A DNA stretch of 61,778 nucleotides, taken from a virus. Its lineage: Duplodnaviria; Heunggongvirae; Uroviricota; Caudoviricetes. Below are positions 4,082 through 59,268 of this stretch, in pieces (the stretch's first letter is position 1; the number at the start of each line of letters is the position of its first letter). Below the pieces are notes generated by a model, which did not search any database, was not told where the DNA came from, and was given only the letters and a program-made list of their open reading frames with translations. Location of the stretch: IMG/VR virus record IMGVR_UViG_2778261381_000005, one strand, 5' to 3'. A program made the translations under genes and the position numbers.

Positions 4082-4100
4082 ATCGCAATTATCTTATTAA

Positions 4101-5651: not shown

Positions 5652-5696
5652 ATGCAAACTGACTGCGGCACGTTCCGCAGTCATATTTCATAGTCG

Positions 5697-6231
5697 TCAC
5701 CGCTGACAGCATACACAATCAACTGCCGCTGATAGCATATCGAGAGTCTATCTCACCGCTCACAGCATACTTTACTCGATTTTTTACCGCTGACAGCATA
5801 CTTAAGACATTGCATGAATAATGTGTACCGGTATGGGTATAACCAGAACAAAATTACCGCTGGCAGCATACGAAGGTCTGACATATGCCATTAATTACCG
5901 CTGATAGCATATCCAAACAAAAATTCCTCAATAAAACACCGCTGACAGCATACGTTCTATCAGGGAGCAGCAGGCAATAAATACCTTTCACTACAAGTAA
6001 TCAGCGCAATGGGAATAGAATGTTAGTGAGCGCAAACCTATATGGAATGCACTCTTCGAGGTTAGTAACCACTGGGGAGGTATAAAAGAGCATTGAGTGG
6101 TGATAGATGATTTACCGCTCACAGCATACGTTTATCTCACTATACCGCTGGTAGCATATCTTTAACCGTTCACAGCATACTTTTCAGAAAAATAGCCGCT
6201 GATAGCATACATTTCACCGCTGACAGCATAT
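5697..6231. repeat. iteron array, about 12 copies of ~17-bp unit (C/T)ACCGCTGACAGCATAC and variants, on the 3' side of rep
   Basis: Direct repeats e.g. at 5697, 5786, 5855, 5896, 5937, 6113, 6143, 6164, 6193, 6215. Confidence 0.75.
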
Positions 6232-7325
6232 CAAAGCAGTTTGAGACTATTGGAAAGGATCTCAATCATCTTGATATTTTCAGGCGTCAAATTCTGCGAA
6301 AGTTCGGTTATCTTATTGATAATGTTCTGTTTGGCATCAATTTCCCCGGCTTTCTCATCTGGTTTTTTGGGTTCGATGTCTTCAGGTTTTGGCGGTGCGA
6401 CTTTGAGTTTTGGATTGCGGCTGTGAATCTGGATATAGATCGACCGCCCACGCTTAATCTCGCTGTATTCGAGATAGCCCAAATCTTGGAGAGCTTTTAA
6501 GCCGTTACGTATAGTCTGATTCTGCGAGCTGACATTCCTGCTACTCAAATTGAGTCGCGCACGCAATCGAGCAAGCGATACCGGCGCAGGCTTGGTTGGA
6601 AGACTTTCGATGAAGGTGTACAGAGCCTGTGCTGTTTCTTTGCGTGGTAGCTTATTGATAACCTTTAACTGCAAAAGAACCTTATGGTCAAAGCGATATA
6701 GTTCGGCCAGCTTCGGTTCTGCATAGAACACCACCGTATCTTTCTGCTCGTTGTAGTCCACGCTATTGATGAGGTGCACCATCAGAAGCGAGATCTTGTT
6801 AGAGCCGTCGACGTTCTTTTCTTCATACGTTCTCTGGAAAGACAGAGTTGTACGCATGATCTTCAAAAGACTGTTTGTAAGCCGGTCGCGGAGTGTTTTG
6901 CGGATCTGTGACGATGGATAGCCACAAAACTTCGCAAATTTCGTGATGCTTAACTCGACACGACCATTAGGTTCGCCGTATTCTGCCAGCGAACGCACAA
7001 CGCCCACCCACGTTTTGAAATCATGATCCATGTCCAGGCGAGGACCGGTTATCTTGATATCGGAATAGCCTTCAGAACGGGCTACTTCGAGCTGGACAAG
7101 CTCCTTTGAAGCATCGATCTCATTTGGCTTGTTACGTTTACTGTATTTTGTTCCCTTAAGCGTGGGGACGAACAACCCCAGTCGCATCAACGCAATTGGT
7201 TGGACTGTATTGTTGCTATTAGGGACAAGTTCCCCTGTGTACAATTCAAGGGAACCTTCTTCAAAGTTGTCGATGTTATCTTCTACTTCTTTGTTATTTT
7301 TACCTTTTTTATTTTTTGTGGACAT
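6231..7325 (-). CDS. plasmid-type replication initiator (iteron-binding Rep), tentative
   Basis: Flanked on both sides by iterons; RBS aaaggtg before MSTKNKK start; basic protein; ORF-track start at 7445 rejected because it runs into iterons. Confidence 0.55.
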   Translation of the reverse strand: MSTKNKKGKNNKEVEDNIDNFEEGSLELYTGELVPNSNNTVQPIALMRLGLFVPTLKGTKYSKRNKPNEIDASKELVQLEVARSEGYSDIKITGPRLDMDHDFKTWVGVVRSLAEYGEPNGRVELSITKFAKFCGYPSSQIRKTLRDRLTNSLLKIMRTTLSFQRTYEEKNVDGSNKISLLMVHLINSVDYNEQKDTVVFYAEPKLAELYRFDHKVLLQLKVINKLPRKETAQALYTFIESLPTKPAPVSLARLRARLNLSSRNVSSQNQTIRNGLKALQDLGYLEYSEIKRGRSIYIQIHSRNPKLKVAPPKPEDIEPKKPDEKAGEIDAKQNIINKITELSQNLTPENIKMIEILSNSLKLL

Positions 7326-7344
7326 GTGGACACCTTTGTCATTC

Positions 7345-7446
7345 AACCGCTGACAGCATACTTGATTTGCCGCTGACAGAATACCAAAAACAGTTGGCAG
7401 CATACGGTGAACCGCTGACAGACTATCAATTACCGCTGACAGCATA
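7345..7446. repeat. iteron array (5 copies) immediately upstream of rep start
   Basis: aaccgctgacagcatac, tgccgctgacagaatac, gttggcagcatac, aaccgctgacagactat, taccgctgacagcatac. Confidence 0.75.
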
Positions 7447-22679: not shown

Positions 22680-23273
22680 ATGATTGCAGCCGAAAAAATC
22701 AAACAGCGAAAGCGCGACAACTCTCTTCGTGACCTCTGGAGAACACCTGACTGGCTGTTTTCTGCCATTCAACGTTATCTTGGAGTGACATTTGATGTTG
22801 ACGTTGCCTGCAACAAGGACAATGCAAAGCTGCCTAATTTCATAGGCGTTGAGCGTGATGCTTTGAAATCTGAATGGGGACAGCCAGGTACAATTGCCTT
22901 CCTCAATCCACCCTACTCCAAAATCTCCCCCTGGATTGATGCGGCTATACGTGAGCAGGCTCGTGGAGTTACAACAGTGATGCTAATTCCTCAATCCCTA
23001 GATACAAAGTGGTATGAGCGTGCAACAGAGTGTGCGAATGAGACGATTATTCTGTCTGGTGGCCGCGTAGCGTTTGTCGAGCCTGACGTAAATCTGGGTC
23101 AGGTAGAAGTAAACATCAACCCAGGTGGCAGTATGCTCGTTGTTTTTCGAGGATTCTGTCAGGACGCTGGGCACTCTATAAGCAAGATCCCTTTGGACGT
23201 CATGAAAAGTCTGGGAGGGTATGATCCTGCGAATGTGATCAGGAAAAAAAGACCATCAAAGAAGGCTGCTTAG
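22680..23273 (+). CDS. phage Dam-like DNA N6-adenine methyltransferase
   Basis: NPPY motif (AFLNPPYSK) and overall size typical of phage Dam-family MTases. Confidence 0.65.
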   Translation: MIAAEKIKQRKRDNSLRDLWRTPDWLFSAIQRYLGVTFDVDVACNKDNAKLPNFIGVERDALKSEWGQPGTIAFLNPPYSKISPWIDAAIREQARGVTTVMLIPQSLDTKWYERATECANETIILSGGRVAFVEPDVNLGQVEVNINPGGSMLVVFRGFCQDAGHSISKIPLDVMKSLGGYDPANVIRKKRPSKKAA

Positions 23274-23293: not shown

Positions 23294-23353
23294 TAGCCTG
23301 CTTCTGTATATATAAATAACTACATATTAATTATTAATATACGGAAGCAGGCT
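23294..23353. repeat. about 60-bp imperfect inverted repeat element with TATAAATA core (copy 1 of 2)
   Basis: agcctgcttctgtatatataaata...tatacggaagcaggct; near-identical copy at 52804-52861. Confidence 0.6.
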
Positions 23354-23459
23354 GTTTTATATCAGAGACTCCCAGACCTGAACACCACTACAGAATCCAC
23401 TAGAACCCCTTCCCAGACGCTTTAAAATCGATTTTATGAACCACTTTAAGGAAACCAAC

Positions 23460-23690
23460 ATGTCATACCCGACTAATGTCGTTGCGCTCGTAGAGAGCGA
23501 TTTTCTGGCCCAGGCTCGTGAAATGATGAAAGATCGTGAGCAGGCTTTCAACTTGTACGAATGGGCAATTAAGTGCTTGCATCTTGGGGAGCATCGCGAA
23601 CTTGTTGAACAGCTTTTAGGTGAGTTGATCAACGAGGTGTTTGCCTTGAATGTTCAACTACATGGTCGAAAAAATAATCAATCGAAATGA
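23460..23690 (+). CDS. hypothetical protein
   Basis: RBS aagga before ATG at 23460. Confidence 0.4.
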   Translation: MSYPTNVVALVESDFLAQAREMMKDREQAFNLYEWAIKCLHLGEHRELVEQLLGELINEVFALNVQLHGRKNNQSK

Positions 23691-28684: not shown

Positions 28685-31600
28685 CTATATCTGCCCACCT
28701 ACTCCTTTGAACTTTTCAATAAACGTGACGATTTTCTGGAAAACGGTCTGTTTTTTCGTTTTATATTGCGGGTTTAACGGACTAAGTTTTGGTAATGTCT
28801 CGTTTAATTCTGTGCCATTTTCGGTGGCGTATTCGCGTTTTAAAGACGTGCGAATATAGCGTTTCGCCGCCTCTTCATTGAGATTTTCTTCTTTTATCAA
28901 TGCTTCTGCTTCACGTTGCTGTTCGCGTTGAGCAAACGTAAAGAATGCCTCAATGATACTGGCTTTGTCTGGTAAATCATCCAGGTTCGTTTGCTGAATA
29001 AAATCGACCACCAGGCCCTCTTTCGCCCGGTTCCCCAGGCTTGAACGAATTAAGCGTTTGACCTCTTCGATCATTTCGCCCTTGCCTTTATTTTGTCTGT
29101 TGTGTTCGAAAATCAGTCCAAGGATATAATCCAGGTTTATTTCCTGAGACTTCAGCAAATCGACCTCAAAAACTACGTCATCCCAGTCAGTGGTTGATTT
29201 CTCTTTTTTCTCAGCTTCTTTCTCACGGCGCTGCCAGTCGCGAATATCGTTATAGGCAGAACGATAATCCTGAATCTTGCGTTCAGCAGGGAGACGAATT
29301 GTTTGCAATTCAGCGAACTTTTCATCATCCACATAATGTTCTGCTTTGAATTTTTCTACCGCAACAGGATCGCTAAGATCGATTTGTTGCAGGGCTTTCA
29401 GCGTGGCAAATTCATCATAGTTTTGCAGGATGTTCTCGGCACGCAGGTATTCACCAAACAGTTTTACGAAGTCTTTCTTCTCTTTTTCACTTTCAATACT
29501 GGCAGGGTCAGGGAACCGTTGTTCCAGTTCTGAAACTACTGCCATAAAGCCGCGTTTAGCTTCACCAGTGGCAGCATCTGTAAAGCCTTCCATATACTCA
29601 GCATAACTCTTTTCTAACACCACATTTTTAGTATTTTTATCACCAAACAGCGTTATGGCATCAATGGTTGAGCGTTCCAGATCCCGAAAAGTGACGATGT
29701 TACCGAAGGTTTTAGTAGCGTCATAAATGCGGTTGGTACGGGAGAATGCCTGCATCAGGCCGTGAAAACGCAAGTTTTTATCGACGAATAGCGTGTTCAA
29801 TGTTGGAGCGTCGAAGCCGGTTAAAAACATCCCAACGACAATTAACAGATCGATATCCTGATTTTTAACCCGTTGGGCTAAATCACGATAGTAGTTCTGA
29901 AAACCGTTACTGTCGGTGCTGAAGTTAGTTTTAAAATAGCTGTTATACTCACGAATTGCAGCGTCAAGAAACTCTTTAGCACTGCTGTCCATTGCGCTGG
30001 TATCAAAAGTTTCATCGGAAATTTCACCAATGGCATTTTGTTCTTCATTGGCGGCAAAGGAGAAGATTGTTGCAACACGCAGCGGTTTATAGGTAGCCGA
30101 TTTATTAGCTGCTTCCTCTTGTAACCGTTTAAACGTCGCGTAATAGGCTTTCGCGGCATCCACGCTACTCACTGCCAGCATGGCATTAAAGCCTTTGGAA
30201 CCTGGGAAAGTACGGTGGGTCTTCTGGCGGAAGTTATTCAGAATATATTGCGTAATTTCCTGTATACGCATGGGATGAAGAAATGCCTGCTGATTTTCAG
30301 CCGCACTCAGTTTTTTCTCGTCGGTTTCTGTCTCTAAAGATTTAAACTGTGGCCGCACATCGTTGTAGTCCACCTTGAATTTGAGCACTTTTTCATCACG
30401 AATCGCATCGGTAATTACATACGAATGCAATTCACGACCAAATACGCTGGCGGTCGTTTCTGAGCCTAAGGCGTTTTCCGGGAAAATAGGTGTGCCGGTA
30501 AAACCAAACTGATAATAGCGTTTGAATTTCTTCTTCAGGTTTTTCTGCGCTTCTCCAAACTGGCTGCGGTGACATTCATCAAATATAAACACCACTTGCT
30601 GATTGTATACAGGCAGGTCGCTTTCTGCTTTCATCAGGTTATTAAGTTTCTGAATAGTGGTGACGATAATTTTGTTATCGTCCTTATCCAGATTGCGTTT
30701 AAGACCTGCGGTATTTTCCGAGCCGTTGACGCTGTCTGGCGAAAAACGCTTATATTCATTCATGGTCTGGTAATCGAGGTCTTTCCTGTCGACCACGAAG
30801 AAGACTTTATCAATAAAGTCCAGCTCTGTTGCCAGACGCGCGGCTTTAAAGCTGGTGAGGGTTTTACCTGAACCGGTAGTGTGCCAGATATACCCACCGC
30901 TTTCCGGTTTTGACCAGTTCTTCGCTGTAAAGGAACTCTTAATTTTCCACAGAATGCGCTCAGTGGCGGCAATCTGGTACGGTCGCATCACCAGTAGCGT
31001 TTGGCTAACATCGAATACGCTGTAGTTCACTAAGACATTAAGCAGGGTATGTTTCTGGAAAAAGGTGGCGGTAAAGTCTTTGAGGTCTTTAATCAGCGTG
31101 TTGTCTGATTTCGCCCAATTCATGGTGAAGTCAAAACTGTTTTTATCGCGCTTTGTCGTGTTGGCAAAGTAACGGGTATCGGTGCCGTTGGAAATGACAA
31201 ACAGTTGCAGATACTTAAACAGAGAATTTTCGCTGTTAAAACTCTCTTTGCTGTAACGATGTATCTGGTTAAAGGCCTCACGAATCGCCACGCCGCGCTT
31301 TTTCAGTTCGATTTGTACCAGCGGTAAGCCATTAACCAGGATCGTGACGTCATAACGGTTAGCATGAGAACCCGTCTGTTCAAACTGCTGGATAATCTGC
31401 ACCTTGTTGCGCATGAGATTCTTTTTATCTATCAAATAGATGTTCTCAAGACGCTCGTCATCAAAAATAAAGTCGCAAATATAGTCGATATGGATTTTAC
31501 GGGTCTTATCCAGGATGCCATCGCTCGGGTTATCCAGATACTGCTCCGTGAAACGCCGCCATTCGCTGTCATTAAACACCACACCATTGAGGTTCTGAAG

Positions 31601-31922: not shown

Positions 31923-33178
<1,256 letters not shown>

Positions 33179-39208: not shown

Positions 39209-39293
39209 ATATAGACACAATCCCTTCTGATTTACACAGTACCTAAAACAATTTGTTTTCTGCCTTTTGTTGATGGAGATAATAAACCACATA

Positions 39294-39312
39294 AGAAAAC
39301 AACTTGTTTTGG
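39294..39312 (+). promoter_or_regulatory. motif 1 palindrome (second copy at 39243-39262)
   Basis: aagaaaacaacttgttttgg; first motif 1 after the host-type block. Confidence 0.45.
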
Positions 39313-39313
39313 A

Positions 39314-39622
39314 GTGGTTGAAATGTTGAACATTACCCAAGCCTACCAGGTGGCATTGATCAGCTCATCTCATACATCAGAGGAAGATGCTCGCCGATTC
39401 ATGATCGCAAGCAATGAGCTGGATTGGGTTTCGCAAATTGACGGCGGTTGTATTGTCCACGCCGGGTTACAGGATGATGTCTGGAAAGACGACTTGCGTC
39501 GATATGGTATATCCGAAGGCGCGATTGCTAACATTCAGAAAGTACTTGATGTAGGCTTTGACTCTGTACATTTTGATTGTGGTGCGCCGGTCGTTGAAGG
39601 GCTTGAGTGCTGGAACTGGTAA
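39314..39622 (+). CDS. hypothetical protein
   Basis: RBS ggag then ATG directly after motif 1. Confidence 0.5.
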   Translation: MVEMLNITQAYQVALISSSHTSEEDARRFMIASNELDWVSQIDGGCIVHAGLQDDVWKDDLRRYGISEGAIANIQKVLDVGFDSVHFDCGAPVVEGLECWNW

Positions 39623-39749: not shown

Positions 39750-40560
39750 GTTGTTTATACAATCAAGAAAACAACTGAATAACAGATCAACGAAACATCA
39801 ACGCTTTCATCCGATTTGGTCTAAAAAATTGACGTTTTCACACATCACTGCTTATACCCGTAATTCTACGCAGCAGACAGCGCCACAGCGTCCAATTTTC
39901 ACCACAGACGACCCAACACACTACCAACAAAAACACACGCTCAAAATCGTTCCCGTTGCGTTACACAACCATATAAACAACTTATTTTCAGGCATAACAA
40001 AACAACTAAATAACACACATGCCATTCCCCAAAACAACCAACCTCTTTATGGCAGGCTACCGAAAAGACCCACCTCTTCTCCCCAGGCTACCGGACAACC
40101 AACCTAACTTTCACAGGCAATCCGAAAACATTCATACGCGCGATACCCACGACACGCCATTACCCAAACAGCGAAGAAACACCTGAACCGCTGAAACCCC
40201 AACGAAGCCTGTAACCGCAAGGTTTCTCTCAATCCCAAAAGACACGAAACATAACAATCACGGGAAACGCCATTACCCAATACACGAATAACTACAAAAG
40301 CCTTTCACACACTCCAGACAAACAACTCAAACACAATAACGAAAGCAATCGCCCACCTGCCATTACTCCATACACGGAGAAGAACAATCACCAAAACGAC
40401 GAGAACACCCCATAGAAGAACCACCGCAAAACGAACGAAACCATTTACACCGACAGAGAGAACAACACGCCCAATTCACCAACAGAAATAGTCGCCGTAT
40501 AGAACATTCTGGAAGGAGTGAGCATTAACGCCTATAGAGAGGTTGAGACAGATAAAACAC
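39750..40560. repeat. non-coding region with strong C+A over G+T strand skew and dispersed repeats
   Basis: Repeats ACGCCATTACCCAA at 40154, 40269, 40355; CAGGCTACCG at 40040-40110; ORF-track ORFs here are low-complexity. Confidence 0.6.
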
Positions 40561-40860: not shown

Positions 40861-41154
40861 ACCTGTAATGTGCGGGAAGAAGAGAGGCGCTCACGTGCAG
40901 GCGAACTTACTTACCGCTGGATTCCCTCTGAATGCCCAGCTACAGCGTAATTGTGCCAGACAGCCAACGGGTCACAATCGATTTCAGTAGGTTTTCGGGG
41001 AGATGATTATTCTGCCCACCAGCCACCTTCGGCCACTAAATCAGAATAATGTAAAAAGTGTTCTCGGTACTGAACCTGAAAACTCACTGCCAAAACCACA
41101 TTCACCGGAATAAAATCCTTTTTCGCCTGTGCGTTATTGCGATAATAACACCAT

Positions 41155-41176
41155 CAAGAAAACATGTTGTTTAAGG
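41155..41176 (+). promoter_or_regulatory. motif 1 palindrome with extended upstream box CGATAATnACACCAnCAAGAAAAC
   Basis: caagaaaacatgttgtttaagg; extended box shared with 43265 and 43755 copies. Confidence 0.45.
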
Positions 41177-41184
41177 ATTGCTTT

Positions 41185-42992: not shown

Positions 42993-43143
42993 ATATGGGC
43001 GATTTCAAGAAACGCCTGAAGGAAAGAGCCGAGATGGTCAGAAAGCAAAACGCCTCTTCTGTCATCAGATACGCAAGGCAGTTTAGTCGCAACAACAAAT
43101 CAGTTGAGGAAAAGATCCTTAGCGTAATCGGGCGATAATTATT

Positions 43144-43167
43144 AAGGCCACCAGCATTGGTGGTCTT
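43144..43167 (+). terminator. terminator hairpin, copy 1 of duplicated element
   Basis: AAGGCCACCA gcat TGGTGGTCTT; near-identical copy at 43613-43640. Confidence 0.5.
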
Positions 43168-43321
43168 AAATGACTTTTAATAACCGAAGGTTAGTTTGAA
43201 ACCTGGCTATCAACTTCCAGAACCTTTCTTGTGTATTCAGCCTGTATTAACTTCTTTTATGCCTTATCTACACTGCGATAATTACACCAACAAGAAAACA
43301 ACATGTTTACGCAGTGAGGAT

Positions 43322-43612: not shown

Positions 43613-43640
43613 TTAAGGCCACCAATGCTGGTGGCCTTAA
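43613..43640 (+). terminator. terminator hairpin, copy 2
   Basis: TTAAGGCCACCA atgc TGGTGGCCTTAA. Confidence 0.5.
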
Positions 43641-43813
43641 ATGACCATCCTGTTTCCCGCAGGCTAAAAACACCAACCTCTTACCTCCAGGCAACCGACA
43701 AACCCACCTGTTCCCGTCCGGCTACCGCAACTTTCCACTTTGACGCCTTATTCGTACAACGATAATTAACACCAACAAGAAAACAATTTGTTATTTACGA
43801 TAAGGAATTAATC

Positions 43814-49523: not shown

Positions 49524-49565
49524 AAACCTCTTTCCTTAGTGCCTTTTGTATGTTATTTGGCTATT

Positions 49566-49591
49566 ATAATAAGTAAGTGATTACTTAGTGG
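49566..49591. promoter_or_regulatory. motif 2 palindrome in divergent region
   Basis: ataataagtaagtgattacttagtgg. Confidence 0.4.
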
Positions 49592-49605: not shown

Positions 49606-50286
49606 ATGGATGTAAAAATCACGATTTTGCAGGTTGATGTTGCCAACCTTCGCCCGAATACCTGGAACACCAATTCGGTTGGTGCGCAGAATTTTGAAAA
49701 ACTGAAAGGTTCTATCGAAAAATTGGGCTTTTTTAAGCCAATTTTGGCTCGTGAACTTGAAGATGGATTTTTTGAAATCCTCGGCGGCGAACATCGCTGG
49801 CGTGCTGCTATTGAGCAAGGAATTTCAACGGTTCCGGTGCTTTCTGTGGGCAAAATTAGCGATGTCGTAGCTAAACAGATGTCACTGGTGGACAACGAGC
49901 GATACGGTGAAGACGACCAAATCGCATTGCAACGCTTCATTGAAGAAATTCAGTCAGAACTTGACTATCAACTGTCTGAAATCGCTCCGTATGACGACGA
50001 AATCTCGATGGTTTTAGCAAAAGAGGCGGCAATCGACCTTGAAGCACTGGAGGCGTTGTCTCGTGGTAGTGATGAGCCTGTCGATACCGACAAACGAGAG
50101 AAAACCGAACGTGTGGGTGCGGAACATCAGACCATGCGCTTCAAAGTAACTTTCGATGCGTCAGATCGTGTTGCAGAAACCATAAAAAACATCATCAAAG
50201 AGCAGGCTATTAACACCGGTAATGAAATGGAGAACGCTGGTGAGGCTCTGGTGTGGCTGGTCGACTACTACAAGGAGCGTATGTAA
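49606..50286 (+). CDS. ParB N-terminal domain protein (ParB/Srx fold)
   Basis: ILGGEHRWRAA box; first gene of four overlapping genes. Confidence 0.55.
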   Translation: MDVKITILQVDVANLRPNTWNTNSVGAQNFEKLKGSIEKLGFFKPILARELEDGFFEILGGEHRWRAAIEQGISTVPVLSVGKISDVVAKQMSLVDNERYGEDDQIALQRFIEEIQSELDYQLSEIAPYDDEISMVLAKEAAIDLEALEALSRGSDEPVDTDKREKTERVGAEHQTMRFKVTFDASDRVAETIKNIIKEQAINTGNEMENAGEALVWLVDYYKERM

Positions 50287-52779: not shown

Positions 52780-52803
52780 TCGGTCTGGGAGCTTATTTAA
52801 AGA

Positions 52804-52861
52804 CCTGCATCTGTATATATAAATAATAAGTAACTTATTAAATATATACGGAAGCAGGCTT
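52804..52861. repeat. about 60-bp inverted repeat element with TATAAATA core (copy 2 of 2), upstream of packaging genes
   Basis: cctgcatctgtatatataaataataagtaacttattaaatatatacggaagcaggct. Confidence 0.6.
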
Positions 52862-52974
52862 CGTAAGACATGCCAGACCTAATTAAACACCCCAGAAAAC
52901 AAGTTGGTTAGCAGATGCAGTAAACAAGTTGTTTTAGAGCGCATGGACGCGCTCTGTGTGTTTTAGAGGGATCT

Positions 52975-58347: not shown

Positions 58348-59268
58348 ATGCCAGAACAAAAGATGAAGATTACGGAAGAGGCATTTTCGGATTTTACGGG
58401 GCATATGTGCCGTGCCGGATTTACCAATTCTATCTCCGATGAACCTTTAACCGAGCGACAACAAAGTCAGCTATCTGCTTGTTTGCAGGCGGTTCCCTTC
58501 TCCCAATCCGTAAACATAACCCCGGCTTCACCGTCAGTTTTGGTTGGGAAAACTGTTCAACTTAGTGCAGGTATTACTATGGGTAAGAGTGCCAGTTCAT
58601 TCACCTGGAAGTCAGCCAATGATCAAATTGCAACCGTCAACGGCACTGGATTAGTAACTGGCGTAGCACCAGGCAAAGTGAAAATTACCGCAACTGATCA
58701 GGAAACCCAGCTTTCCGCGTCAGTGGAAGTCACCGTAAATCCGGTAGCCGTTCAATCCGTAACGGTAACGCCAGACTCAACCTCTGTTGAGAAAGGGAAA
58801 TCAGTCAGTCTGAAAGCGAATGTTCAGCCGTCAAATGCGACGAATAAGGCAGTTACTTGGTCTTCCAAAAATGAAGACAAGGCAACGGTAGACCAGAGCG
58901 GGAACGTTACTGGTGTAGAAGTTGGCACTGCGACGATTGAGATCGTTTCCCAAGATGGCAGCAAAAAGGGAACTGCAACGGTGGAAGTAACTGCGCCTGT
59001 TGTGGCTGTTACCGGCGTCGAAATCGACCCAAATAGCACAACCGTTGAGGCAAACAAAACTGTTCAGCTGACCGCAAATGTCGAGCCGGCAGGAGCAACA
59101 AATAAAACCGTTACTTGGGAATCCAAAAATACCGAGTTTGCAACGGTGGATAGCGAAACCGGTGTTGTAACTGGCGTTGCGGCTGGTACTGCCACAATCG
59201 AGGTTACTACCCAAGATGGTAGCCACAAAGCGACAGCGACCGTAGAAGTCACTGCTGCACAGGAATAA
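58348..59268 (+). CDS. Ig-like (Big_2) repeat protein, probable head decoration protein
   Basis: Three ~90-aa repeats (VTP...VTGV..GTATIEV); RBS aggag. Confidence 0.7.
   Translation: MPEQKMKITEEAFSDFTGHMCRAGFTNSISDEPLTERQQSQLSACLQAVPFSQSVNITPASPSVLVGKTVQLSAGITMGKSASSFTWKSANDQIATVNGTGLVTGVAPGKVKITATDQETQLSASVEVTVNPVAVQSVTVTPDSTSVEKGKSVSLKANVQPSNATNKAVTWSSKNEDKATVDQSGNVTGVEVGTATIEIVSQDGSKKGTATVEVTAPVVAVTGVEIDPNSTTVEANKTVQLTANVEPAGATNKTVTWESKNTEFATVDSETGVVTGVAAGTATIEVTTQDGSHKATATVEVTAAQE

Follow-up and report, generated by a model that had tools for sequence, protein, structure and literature searches.

A three-copy family of long hairpins in SSU5-like phage-plasmids, with two candidate terminators and a tail-less copy before the packaging genes

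Introduction

Intrinsic (Rho-independent) terminators consist of a G+C-based hairpin that stands after a stop codon and is followed directly by a U run. Long hairpins of another kind are known from phage T7, whose polycistronic RNAs carry RNase III hairpins between genes; these are similar to one another and exceed 20 bp, and their cleavage can leave a protective 3′ hairpin. These two classes are among the closest described counterparts of an interrupted palindrome that we have analyzed in a 61,778-nucleotide stretch of tailed-phage DNA (Caudoviricetes; IMG/VR record IMGVR_UViG_2778261381_000005), referred to below as the window. One copy of the element (c1, positions 23297 to 23353) follows a Dam-like gene, another (c2, 52804 to 52860) stands before the packaging genes, and a third (c3) lies outside the window.

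The window represents ~57% of the genome of an SSU5-like phage-plasmid. It is 98 to 99.6% identical to the Escherichia phages CMS-2020a, Cyrano (pLF82), and PhiR41_1, and shares ~79% identity with Salmonella phage SSU5 and with phage-plasmids of Klebsiella. Phage-plasmids of the SSU5/pHCM2/pMT1 type are common in Escherichia coli, Klebsiella, Enterobacter, Salmonella Typhi, and Yersinia pestis, and their regulatory signals are essentially unannotated.

Copies c1 and c3 resemble intrinsic terminators in having a G+C-based hairpin and then a U run after a stop codon, and transcript levels fall sharply across c3. The family differs from ordinary terminators in its very long stem (17 to 19 bp plus an upper A+U stem), in its A+T loop of 21 to 27 nt, in the presence of three near-identical copies that are kept across Escherichia, Klebsiella, Salmonella, Enterobacter, Citrobacter, Cronobacter, and Yersinia, and in the existence of a copy, c2, without any U run. 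The likeness to T7 lies in the occurrence of several similar long intergenic hairpins in co-directional operons, an arrangement that would fit c2, whereas the stems described here lack the central asymmetric internal loop of the T7 hairpins. The element is real, conserved, and unannotated, and c1 and c3 are unusual among terminators for their length, copy number, and cross-genus conservation. The account that we favor, and hold on balance to be probable, is that of a three-copy hairpin family in which c1 and c3 are long-stem intrinsic terminators and c2 is a tail-less RNA hairpin within an operon.

Results

Three copies of a long hairpin follow stop codons on the coding strand

A repeat search paired c1 with c2 over 57 nt at 81% identity, which agrees with a preliminary description of the window that had placed near-identical elements after the Dam-like gene and before the packaging module. 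Extending the search to the full genome located c3 at positions 31157 to 31213 of Cyrano (L008:22258–22314), between the ParA operon and a helicase-primase module. The common plan is a quasi-palindrome in which 17-nt arms, CCTGCTTCYGTATATAT and ATATATACRGAAGCAGG, enclose a loop composed of A and T only, which measures 21 to 25 nt in c1 and c2. The 17-mer ATATACGGAAGCAGGCT occurs exactly at 23337 to 23353 and at 52844 to 52860, and inverted with one mismatch at 23295 to 23311. With up to three mismatches allowed, the window holds four matches to this 17-mer compared with 0.09 expected, a number reached in 0 of 100 shuffles; the fourth match (22945–22961, three mismatches) lies inside the Dam gene and outside both elements. 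The symmetry continues outward in a pair of boxes, TCTGGGAG and CTCCCAGAC, that stand ~12 to 20 nt beyond each arm.

All features of c1 and c2 given here are on the + strand. In c1, the 5′ arm CCTGCTTCTGTATATAT (23297–23313), together with the AG at 23295 to 23296, forms a stem of 19 pairs that includes one U·G pair with the 3′ arm ATATACGGAAGCAGGCT (23337–23353). The intervening loop (23314–23336) holds the tail of the 8-mer TATAAATA (23311–23318), and the stem is followed by the tail GTTTTAT (23354–23360) and the outer box CTCCCAGACC (23369–23378), which is the inverted partner of a GTCTGGGAG box found upstream of the element in relatives. In c2, the 5′ arm CCTGCATCTGTATATAT (52804–52820) faces the 3′ arm ATATATACGGAAGCAGG (52842–52858) with an A·A mismatch and a U·G pair, the loop (52821–52841) contains an inner palindrome, AATAAGT-A-ACTTATT, and the outer boxes are GGTCTGGGAG upstream (52782–52791) and its inverted partner CCAGACC downstream (52873–52879).

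The suggestion in the preliminary description that the arms could form a long hairpin is borne out by folding. The + strand RNA of c1 folds with −31.2 kcal/mol (z = −6.4) and that of c2 with −26.3 kcal/mol (z = −5.95), and in each case none of 200 shuffled sequences folded as well; c3 reaches −33.2 kcal/mol, and the z scores of the three copies range from −5.95 to −10.45. DNA folds of c1 and c2 are similar to the RNA folds. The stem of c3 is a perfect 17 bp, whereas the imperfect stem of c2 belongs to a fold of 26 pairs that is broken by two single mismatches and a small internal loop. Averaged over orthologues, the + strand folding energies are −22.5 (c1), −28.8 (c2), and −26.3 (c3) kcal/mol, such that c2 is the most stable. 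The surroundings of the copies are equally regular: each lies on the coding strand, with a stop codon 22 to 24 nt before its 5′ arm and the next start codon 107 to 115 nt past its end.

The U run separates c1 and c3 from c2

Orthologous loci were collected via the three proteins encoded downstream, so that sampling was blind to the element. Every unique upstream region thus obtained contains it (c1, 53 of 53; c2, 47 of 47; c3, 58 of 58). A stable hairpin on the transcribed strand, placed just after a stop codon, is common to all copies. The third feature of an intrinsic terminator, the U tract, divides them: TTTT occurs within 9 nt of the stem in 52 of the 53 unique orthologues of c1 and in 52 of the 58 of c3, compared with none of the 47 of c2, where the stem is followed by CTTCGTAA, CTCTCAAA, TTCTGAAT, and similar sequences. 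This split holds in every clade.

Expression data are consistent with a terminator at c3. In E. coli LF82 carrying Cyrano, the par operon genes CYRAN_28, CYRAN_29, and CYRAN_30 are measured by RNA sequencing (RNA-seq) at 50, 89, and 55 fragments per kilobase per million (FPKM), respectively, and CYRAN_31 at 6 FPKM (PMC9928086, supplementary file 2). In a second condition, the log2 value drops from 10.42 to 2.56 across the same gap (PMC9928086, supplementary file 2). The fall across c3 therefore ranges from ~9-fold (lysogeny broth, LB) to ~230-fold in these data, which are gene-level and do not resolve 3′ ends. The gap between CYRAN_30 and CYRAN_31 is 194 nt long, and c3 is its only notable feature; we infer that the hairpin itself causes the stop. 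The assignment of c1 is drawn from its anatomy and conservation. Of the proposal in the preliminary description that the element is a terminator with an A+T-rich loop, the part concerning the copy after the Dam gene stands and extends to c3, whereas for the copy before the packaging genes a terminator of canonical form does not.

The leaders 3′ of c1 and c3 are paralogous as well. Both carry a conserved CCAG(A/T)CGCT...TAnnAT box 32 to 40 nt before the ATG, whose second part is likely a promoter −10 element. The version that follows c1, CCAGACGCTTTAAAAT (23413–23428, + strand), includes the −10-like sequence TAAAAT and precedes the ATG at 23460 by 32 nt; it has its paralogue in the CCAGTCGCTATCAT box beyond c3 and is the probable promoter of the next operon.

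A mechanism can be proposed from these features, in which a paralogous family of three long RNA hairpins, specific to enterobacterial phage-plasmids of the SSU5/pHCM2/pMT1 type, would mark the borders between co-directional gene blocks. At c1 (23295–23360), after the Dam gene, and likewise at c3, after the ParA operon, RNA polymerase would transcribe the 17- to 19-bp stem, whose G+C-containing base is CCUGC/GCAGG; the hairpin would form directly ahead of the U run and the transcript would be released. Termination would insulate the next operon, whose −10-like box stands ~70 nt further on. At c2 (52804–52858), transcription would be allowed to pass, and the copy would act as an RNA hairpin for processing or for 3′-end protection, or as a weak attenuator. 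Near-identity of the copies would be kept by constraint on the long stem and by occasional gene conversion. If so, the hairpins provide three fixed landmarks in these genomes, two at operon ends (before the replication module and before the RNase H block) and one within the packaging operon, and they would contribute to an explanation of how expression during lysogeny, for example of the par operon, is kept apart from that of the lytic genes.

Several observations weigh against this reading. The RNA-seq drop concerns c3, the copy outside the window; the same data are uninformative for c1, where expression goes from 6.0 to 9.5 FPKM with both sides at background, and across c2 they show only a 2- to 4-fold fall near background. 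Copy c1 shows two mismatches on the + strand in the Salmonella and Klebsiella clades, and its mean folding energy favors the − strand (−28.7 versus −22.5 kcal/mol). Conservation of the arms, and in c2 also of one loop half, exceeds what a simple terminator would require, and non-complementary spacers separate the outer TCTGG/CCAGA boxes from the arms, a layout more like that of a protein–DNA site. Finally, no compensatory changes were found, either in pair counts over 53 unique cores or with RNAalifold on 15 c2 orthologues (covariation term 0.01). The variable stem position (Y:R) occurs as CG 14, UG 27, UA 6, and CA 6 times among the 53 cores, approximately as independent variation would give, and an early impression of compensating changes from AGCC/GGCT to GACC/GGTC fell to the same counts. 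Pairing is thus supported by thermodynamics, by the U-run context, by tolerance of inversion (see below), and by RNA-seq, and not by compensatory evolution.

The element is fixed in position across enterobacterial phage-plasmids

A 65-nt query of PLSDB matched 800 plasmids at 2,787 places, with Klebsiella (313), Escherichia (237), Enterobacter (92), Yersinia (62, pMT), Salmonella (49), Citrobacter (25), and Cronobacter (10) as hosts; the pMT plasmid of Yersinia pestis is among the carriers. Among the PLSDB matches listed, no annotated feature underlies the element. In 5,426 complete E. coli genomes, c1 was found in 205, with 205 of its 207 places on plasmids. A miniature inverted-repeat transposable element or a repetitive extragenic palindromic (REP)-like mobile element was rejected on the basis of this plasmid-borne distribution and of the fixed positions in all relatives. 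Rfam searches, of the whole window at the gathering threshold and permissively around c2, returned only chance hairpin matches to microRNA precursor models. A more distant relative, Pseudomonas phage nickie, has a TerL protein that is 56% identical and the same gene order around terS, and no large A+T palindrome was found before its terS. Its occurrence is therefore confined to enterobacterial phage-plasmids, and comparison across families offers no clue to its role.

Conservation is not uniform among the copies. Identity among orthologues is highest for c2 (0.94, compared with ~79% for the surrounding DNA between clades), followed by c3 (0.90) and c1 (0.88), and ACTTATTAAATATATACGGAAGCAGG, which comprises the right loop half and the 3′ arm of c2, is almost invariant across genera. 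In contrast to c2, where none of 47 orthologues is affected, c3 has an interior that is inverted relative to its flanks in 7 or more of its 58 unique variants (L214, L216, L218, L232, L250, L253, and L275; Fisher p = 0.016) and also in Cyrano; no inversion was seen among orthologues of c1 either. The T run of c3 stays in place where the interior is inverted, and therefore it is structure that matters there, with the orientation of the loop being irrelevant. These inversions suggest that the arms recombine with each other, or that template switching occurs between them, at the border of a variable plasmid-cargo region. The sequence upstream of c3 varies between genomes while that downstream is constant, indicating that the element moves together with the downstream module, in keeping with an insulating terminator.

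The copies also exchange sequence. In five genomes, c3 matches c2 at all of 55 positions (100% identity), a different genome has identical c1 and c3, and loop variants specific to a lineage recur in the copies of a single genome. The close similarity of the copies is thus attributable in part to occasional gene conversion between them.

The copy before the packaging genes is a tail-less paralogue

Copy c2 is directly upstream of the terS-terL-portal genes and ends 115 nt before terS. It lies 3.2 kb into an uninterrupted + strand run of open reading frames (ORFs) that begins at 49606, is preceded by a perfect TATAAT (49563–49568), and continues into terS, terL, and portal; the part before c2 encodes two ParB-N-domain proteins, two ABC-type ATPases, and one protein of 88 amino acids. 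We infer that the genes from 49606 to terS are co-transcribed, such that c2 appears to lie inside an operon, and this location fits the absence of a terminator tail. Thus, c2 is a tail-less paralogue that departs from the definition of a terminator in one tested feature, the U run. It provides at least about two turns of double-stranded RNA in an intercistronic position between co-directional ORFs, as expected for an RNase III site. RNA processing or stability, a packaging site, and a protein site are the candidate roles.

Between c2 and terS there is a second, smaller hairpin (52935–52966, + strand) that lies outside the palindrome family. It consists of the G+C hairpin AGAGCGC-N6-GCGCTCT and the T tract TGTGTGTTTTAG, stands directly before the terS ribosome-binding site, and is conserved in SSU5 and in the Klebsiella relatives; at the corresponding site, phage nickie has a hairpin that differs in sequence. 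Judged from its sequence, this hairpin is a canonical terminator or attenuator, and it suggests attenuation or antitermination control of the packaging genes.

The arrangement allows a more specific proposal, which we put forward tentatively and regard as possible rather than probable. In place of being a degenerate terminator, c2 would be a hairpin of the terminator family that was co-opted as a sequence-specific cis signal heading the packaging and structural genes. It could be the pac or cos start for terminase, or it could be an RNA signal that decides what becomes of the late transcript, via processing or via read-through of the small terminator 75 nt downstream. Such co-option would explain why the U run is lost in c2 alone in every lineage, why c2 is the most conserved copy and never inverts, and why the SSU5 virion record starts there.

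A possible packaging site at c2

That c2 is all or part of the packaging recognition and cleavage site (cos or pac) is a reading that we consider unlikely. According to this reading, the terS product would bind the symmetric boxes and arms, the large subunit would cut the A+T center, and c1 and c3 would be terminators merely sharing ancestry with c2. The resemblance to lambda cos (cosN and the cosB sites R3-I1-R2) and to pac sites is that c2 adjoins terS-terL-portal on the upstream side and has inverted repeats around an A+T-rich center. Moreover, the linear, virion-derived GenBank record of SSU5 (NC_018843) starts at the equivalent of 52841/52842, 9 nt to the right of the dyad center, and joining its end to its start rebuilds c2 exactly, the outcome expected of a cos or pac site that precedes terS. 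The record of Cyrano begins at the same equivalent position and appears to follow the SSU5 start. The lack of a T run in c2 alone, its high conservation with an almost invariant right half, and the absence of inversion all agree with a distinct role for this copy.

Against a packaging site stands the fact that the element is not unique, with three copies per genome. In the five genomes in which c3 equals c2 over all 55 nt, the flanking boxes are also similar, and thus the core alone cannot specify a unique cut. Furthermore, contigs assembled from bacterial isolates have an end inside c3 (L211 and L224) or c1 (L292 and L306). Breaks induced by the palindromes are thus common and affect all three copies, and the SSU5 start may be one of them. 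A symmetric cut around the center of c2 would leave self-complementary ends, which would be unusual for cos phages. The terminase large subunit matches only the general Terminase_6N and Terminase_6C families, and its distant relatives package DNA in mixed modes, such that neither family nor relatives discriminate between a cos and a headful mechanism. A literature search combining SSU5 with cos or termini, in which some queries were loosely tied to SSU5, found no report on SSU5 termini. The palindromes probably also fixed the start of the SSU5 reference record and, as break points in public assemblies, may mislead inference of genome ends. If c2 were nonetheless the packaging site, the ends of the virion chromosome would be defined for the whole group.

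A possible protein-binding site in double-stranded DNA

Conservation without covariation is also what would be expected if the palindromes were bound as double-stranded DNA by a sequence-specific protein acting as a dimer or tetramer, be it an operator or insulator protein, a protein of a dispersed centromere as in the linear phage-plasmid N15, or a host factor. Each arm would then be a half-site, with four helical turns between the two, and auxiliary sites would be provided by the outer TCTGG/CCAGA boxes. Both arms are indeed conserved as sequence, with stem positions 0 to 13 being 94 to 100% identical on both sides among the 53 unique cores, as two symmetric half-sites would be, and the variable position is a pyrimidine in both half-sites. 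The outer boxes are kept despite their non-complementary spacers and despite the changing upstream context of c3. On a circle of 108 kb, the three sites fall near 0, 31, and 78 kb, with c3 just after the ParA operon and with ParB-N-domain genes upstream of c2. In N15, too, the centromeres are a few scattered palindromes, some of them beside lytic operons.

We nevertheless view a protein site as a doubtful explanation. Pfam and PHROGs scans of the genes beside the three copies gave no candidate DNA- or RNA-binding protein, and the first downstream genes have no recognizable family. The T run, present at c1 and c3 and absent at c2, would have no role at a protein site. Two other families of short palindromes in the genome are far more numerous and are better operator candidates. 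The centromere version is further set apart by the N15 sites, which are short uninterrupted palindromes bound by SopB, whereas the present element has 17-nt arms and a loop of more than 20 nt. ParA is here a small type Ib protein, and the known centromeres of type Ib ParA systems are arrays of short repeats. A LexA box was rejected by eye: the halves CTGTATAT...ATATACAG stand ~45 bp apart, and the Salmonella clade has CCGTATAT.

Replication origins and late promoters as less likely readings

The elements might alternatively be origins or entry points of lytic replication, in which an A+T core melts between inverted boxes as in herpes simplex virus oriS or SPP1 oriL/oriR, or in which the palindromes are cut by the phage SbcCD-like nuclease and thereby seed recombination-dependent replication. 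The ~37 bp of nearly pure A+T between G+C-containing inverted boxes and the three copies, one of them beside helicase-primase genes, are compatible with such a function. The phage-plasmid also encodes a nearly complete T4-style set for recombination-dependent replication, comprising RecA/UvsX, UvsY, a gp32-like single-stranded DNA-binding protein, SbcCD-like proteins, RuvC, UvsW, RNase H, Pnkp, and ligase (Cyrano annotation CYRAN_32–36, 49, 52–55, 65–68, 73, 82, and 118). We regard an origin as very unlikely, however, given that the GC-skew profile has no inflection at c1 or c2, that no initiator was identified, that a 57-nt interrupted palindrome is short for attack by SbcCD, and that neither the conserved T runs nor the fixed distance to the stop codon would be explained. 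In Cyrano, a RepA-iteron plasmid replicon stands beside the T4-style set. At least 11 copies of the iteron ACCGCTGACAGCATA form two clusters on either side of the RepA gene (Cyrano annotation), at 5693 to 7446 of the window, and this region is the plasmid replicon of the prophage.

The preliminary description had also noted that the core matches a T4-type late promoter, and the 8-mer TATAAATA is indeed present literally on the coding strand of both window copies (23311–23318 and 52818–52825), ~140 nt before the next gene. That it acts as a T4-type late promoter for the downstream genes is hardly credible, since the 8-mer is the only likeness: it occurs three times in 61.8 kb compared with 1.63 expected (22 of 100 shuffles reach three), is found in 33 and missing from 14 of 47 c2 orthologues (TATAACTA takes its place in the Klebsiella clade), and in inverted c3 variants is either lacking or on the other strand, oriented away from the genes that follow. 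The element, moreover, precedes replication genes as well as late genes, and tblastn with T4 gp55 and gp45 against the window and the rest of the Cyrano genome found no homologue at BLAST-level sensitivity (best E-value 0.86). A scan for sigma-70-type promoters scored no + strand site in c1 or c2, and an extended −10 and a sigma-54 promoter in the element were rejected by eye.

Other repeats in the window

One of the two families of short palindromes has 20-bp sites with the consensus ATAGGTAAGTACTTACCTAT at 2954, 4907, 8414, 13098, 17814, 22649, 24866, 49569, 54860, 56367, and 58283. A scan permitting up to six mismatches gave 22 matches compared with 2.4 in shuffles, of which ~14 are good copies. 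The sites at 2954 and 56367 stand between a −35 element TTGAAA and a −10 element, a further one follows right after the TATAAT at 49563 to 49568, and, downstream of c3, another separates the −10-like box from the ribosome-binding site. The family probably represents operators of the prophage repressor.

A second palindrome family, (A)GAAAACAAnTTGTTT, is represented at 4099, 15537, 25760, 26472, 39244, 39293, 39750, 41642, 42544, 43777, 52893, and 52920, and at L008:20357. The copies that were checked stand 20 to 35 nt before start codons, with two between c2 and terS and one before ParA; this palindrome may serve as an operator, as an activator site, or as a leader hairpin.

The region of short genes at 39 to 44 kb is rich in further repeats. 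A 76-nt repeat is present in three copies (39242–39317, 41105–41180, and 43241–43316), two tandem arrays have units of ~30 nt (40031–40127 and 43638–43731), and a 28-nt inverted repeat is 96% complementary (43142–43169 and 43613–43640). Elsewhere, the 12-nt sequence TAAGCTCAGCGG is repeated in tandem in three to four units at 32591 to 32635, and an internal duplication of 89 nt with 71% identity within a late gene (58906–59255) leads us to suspect a repeated protein domain.

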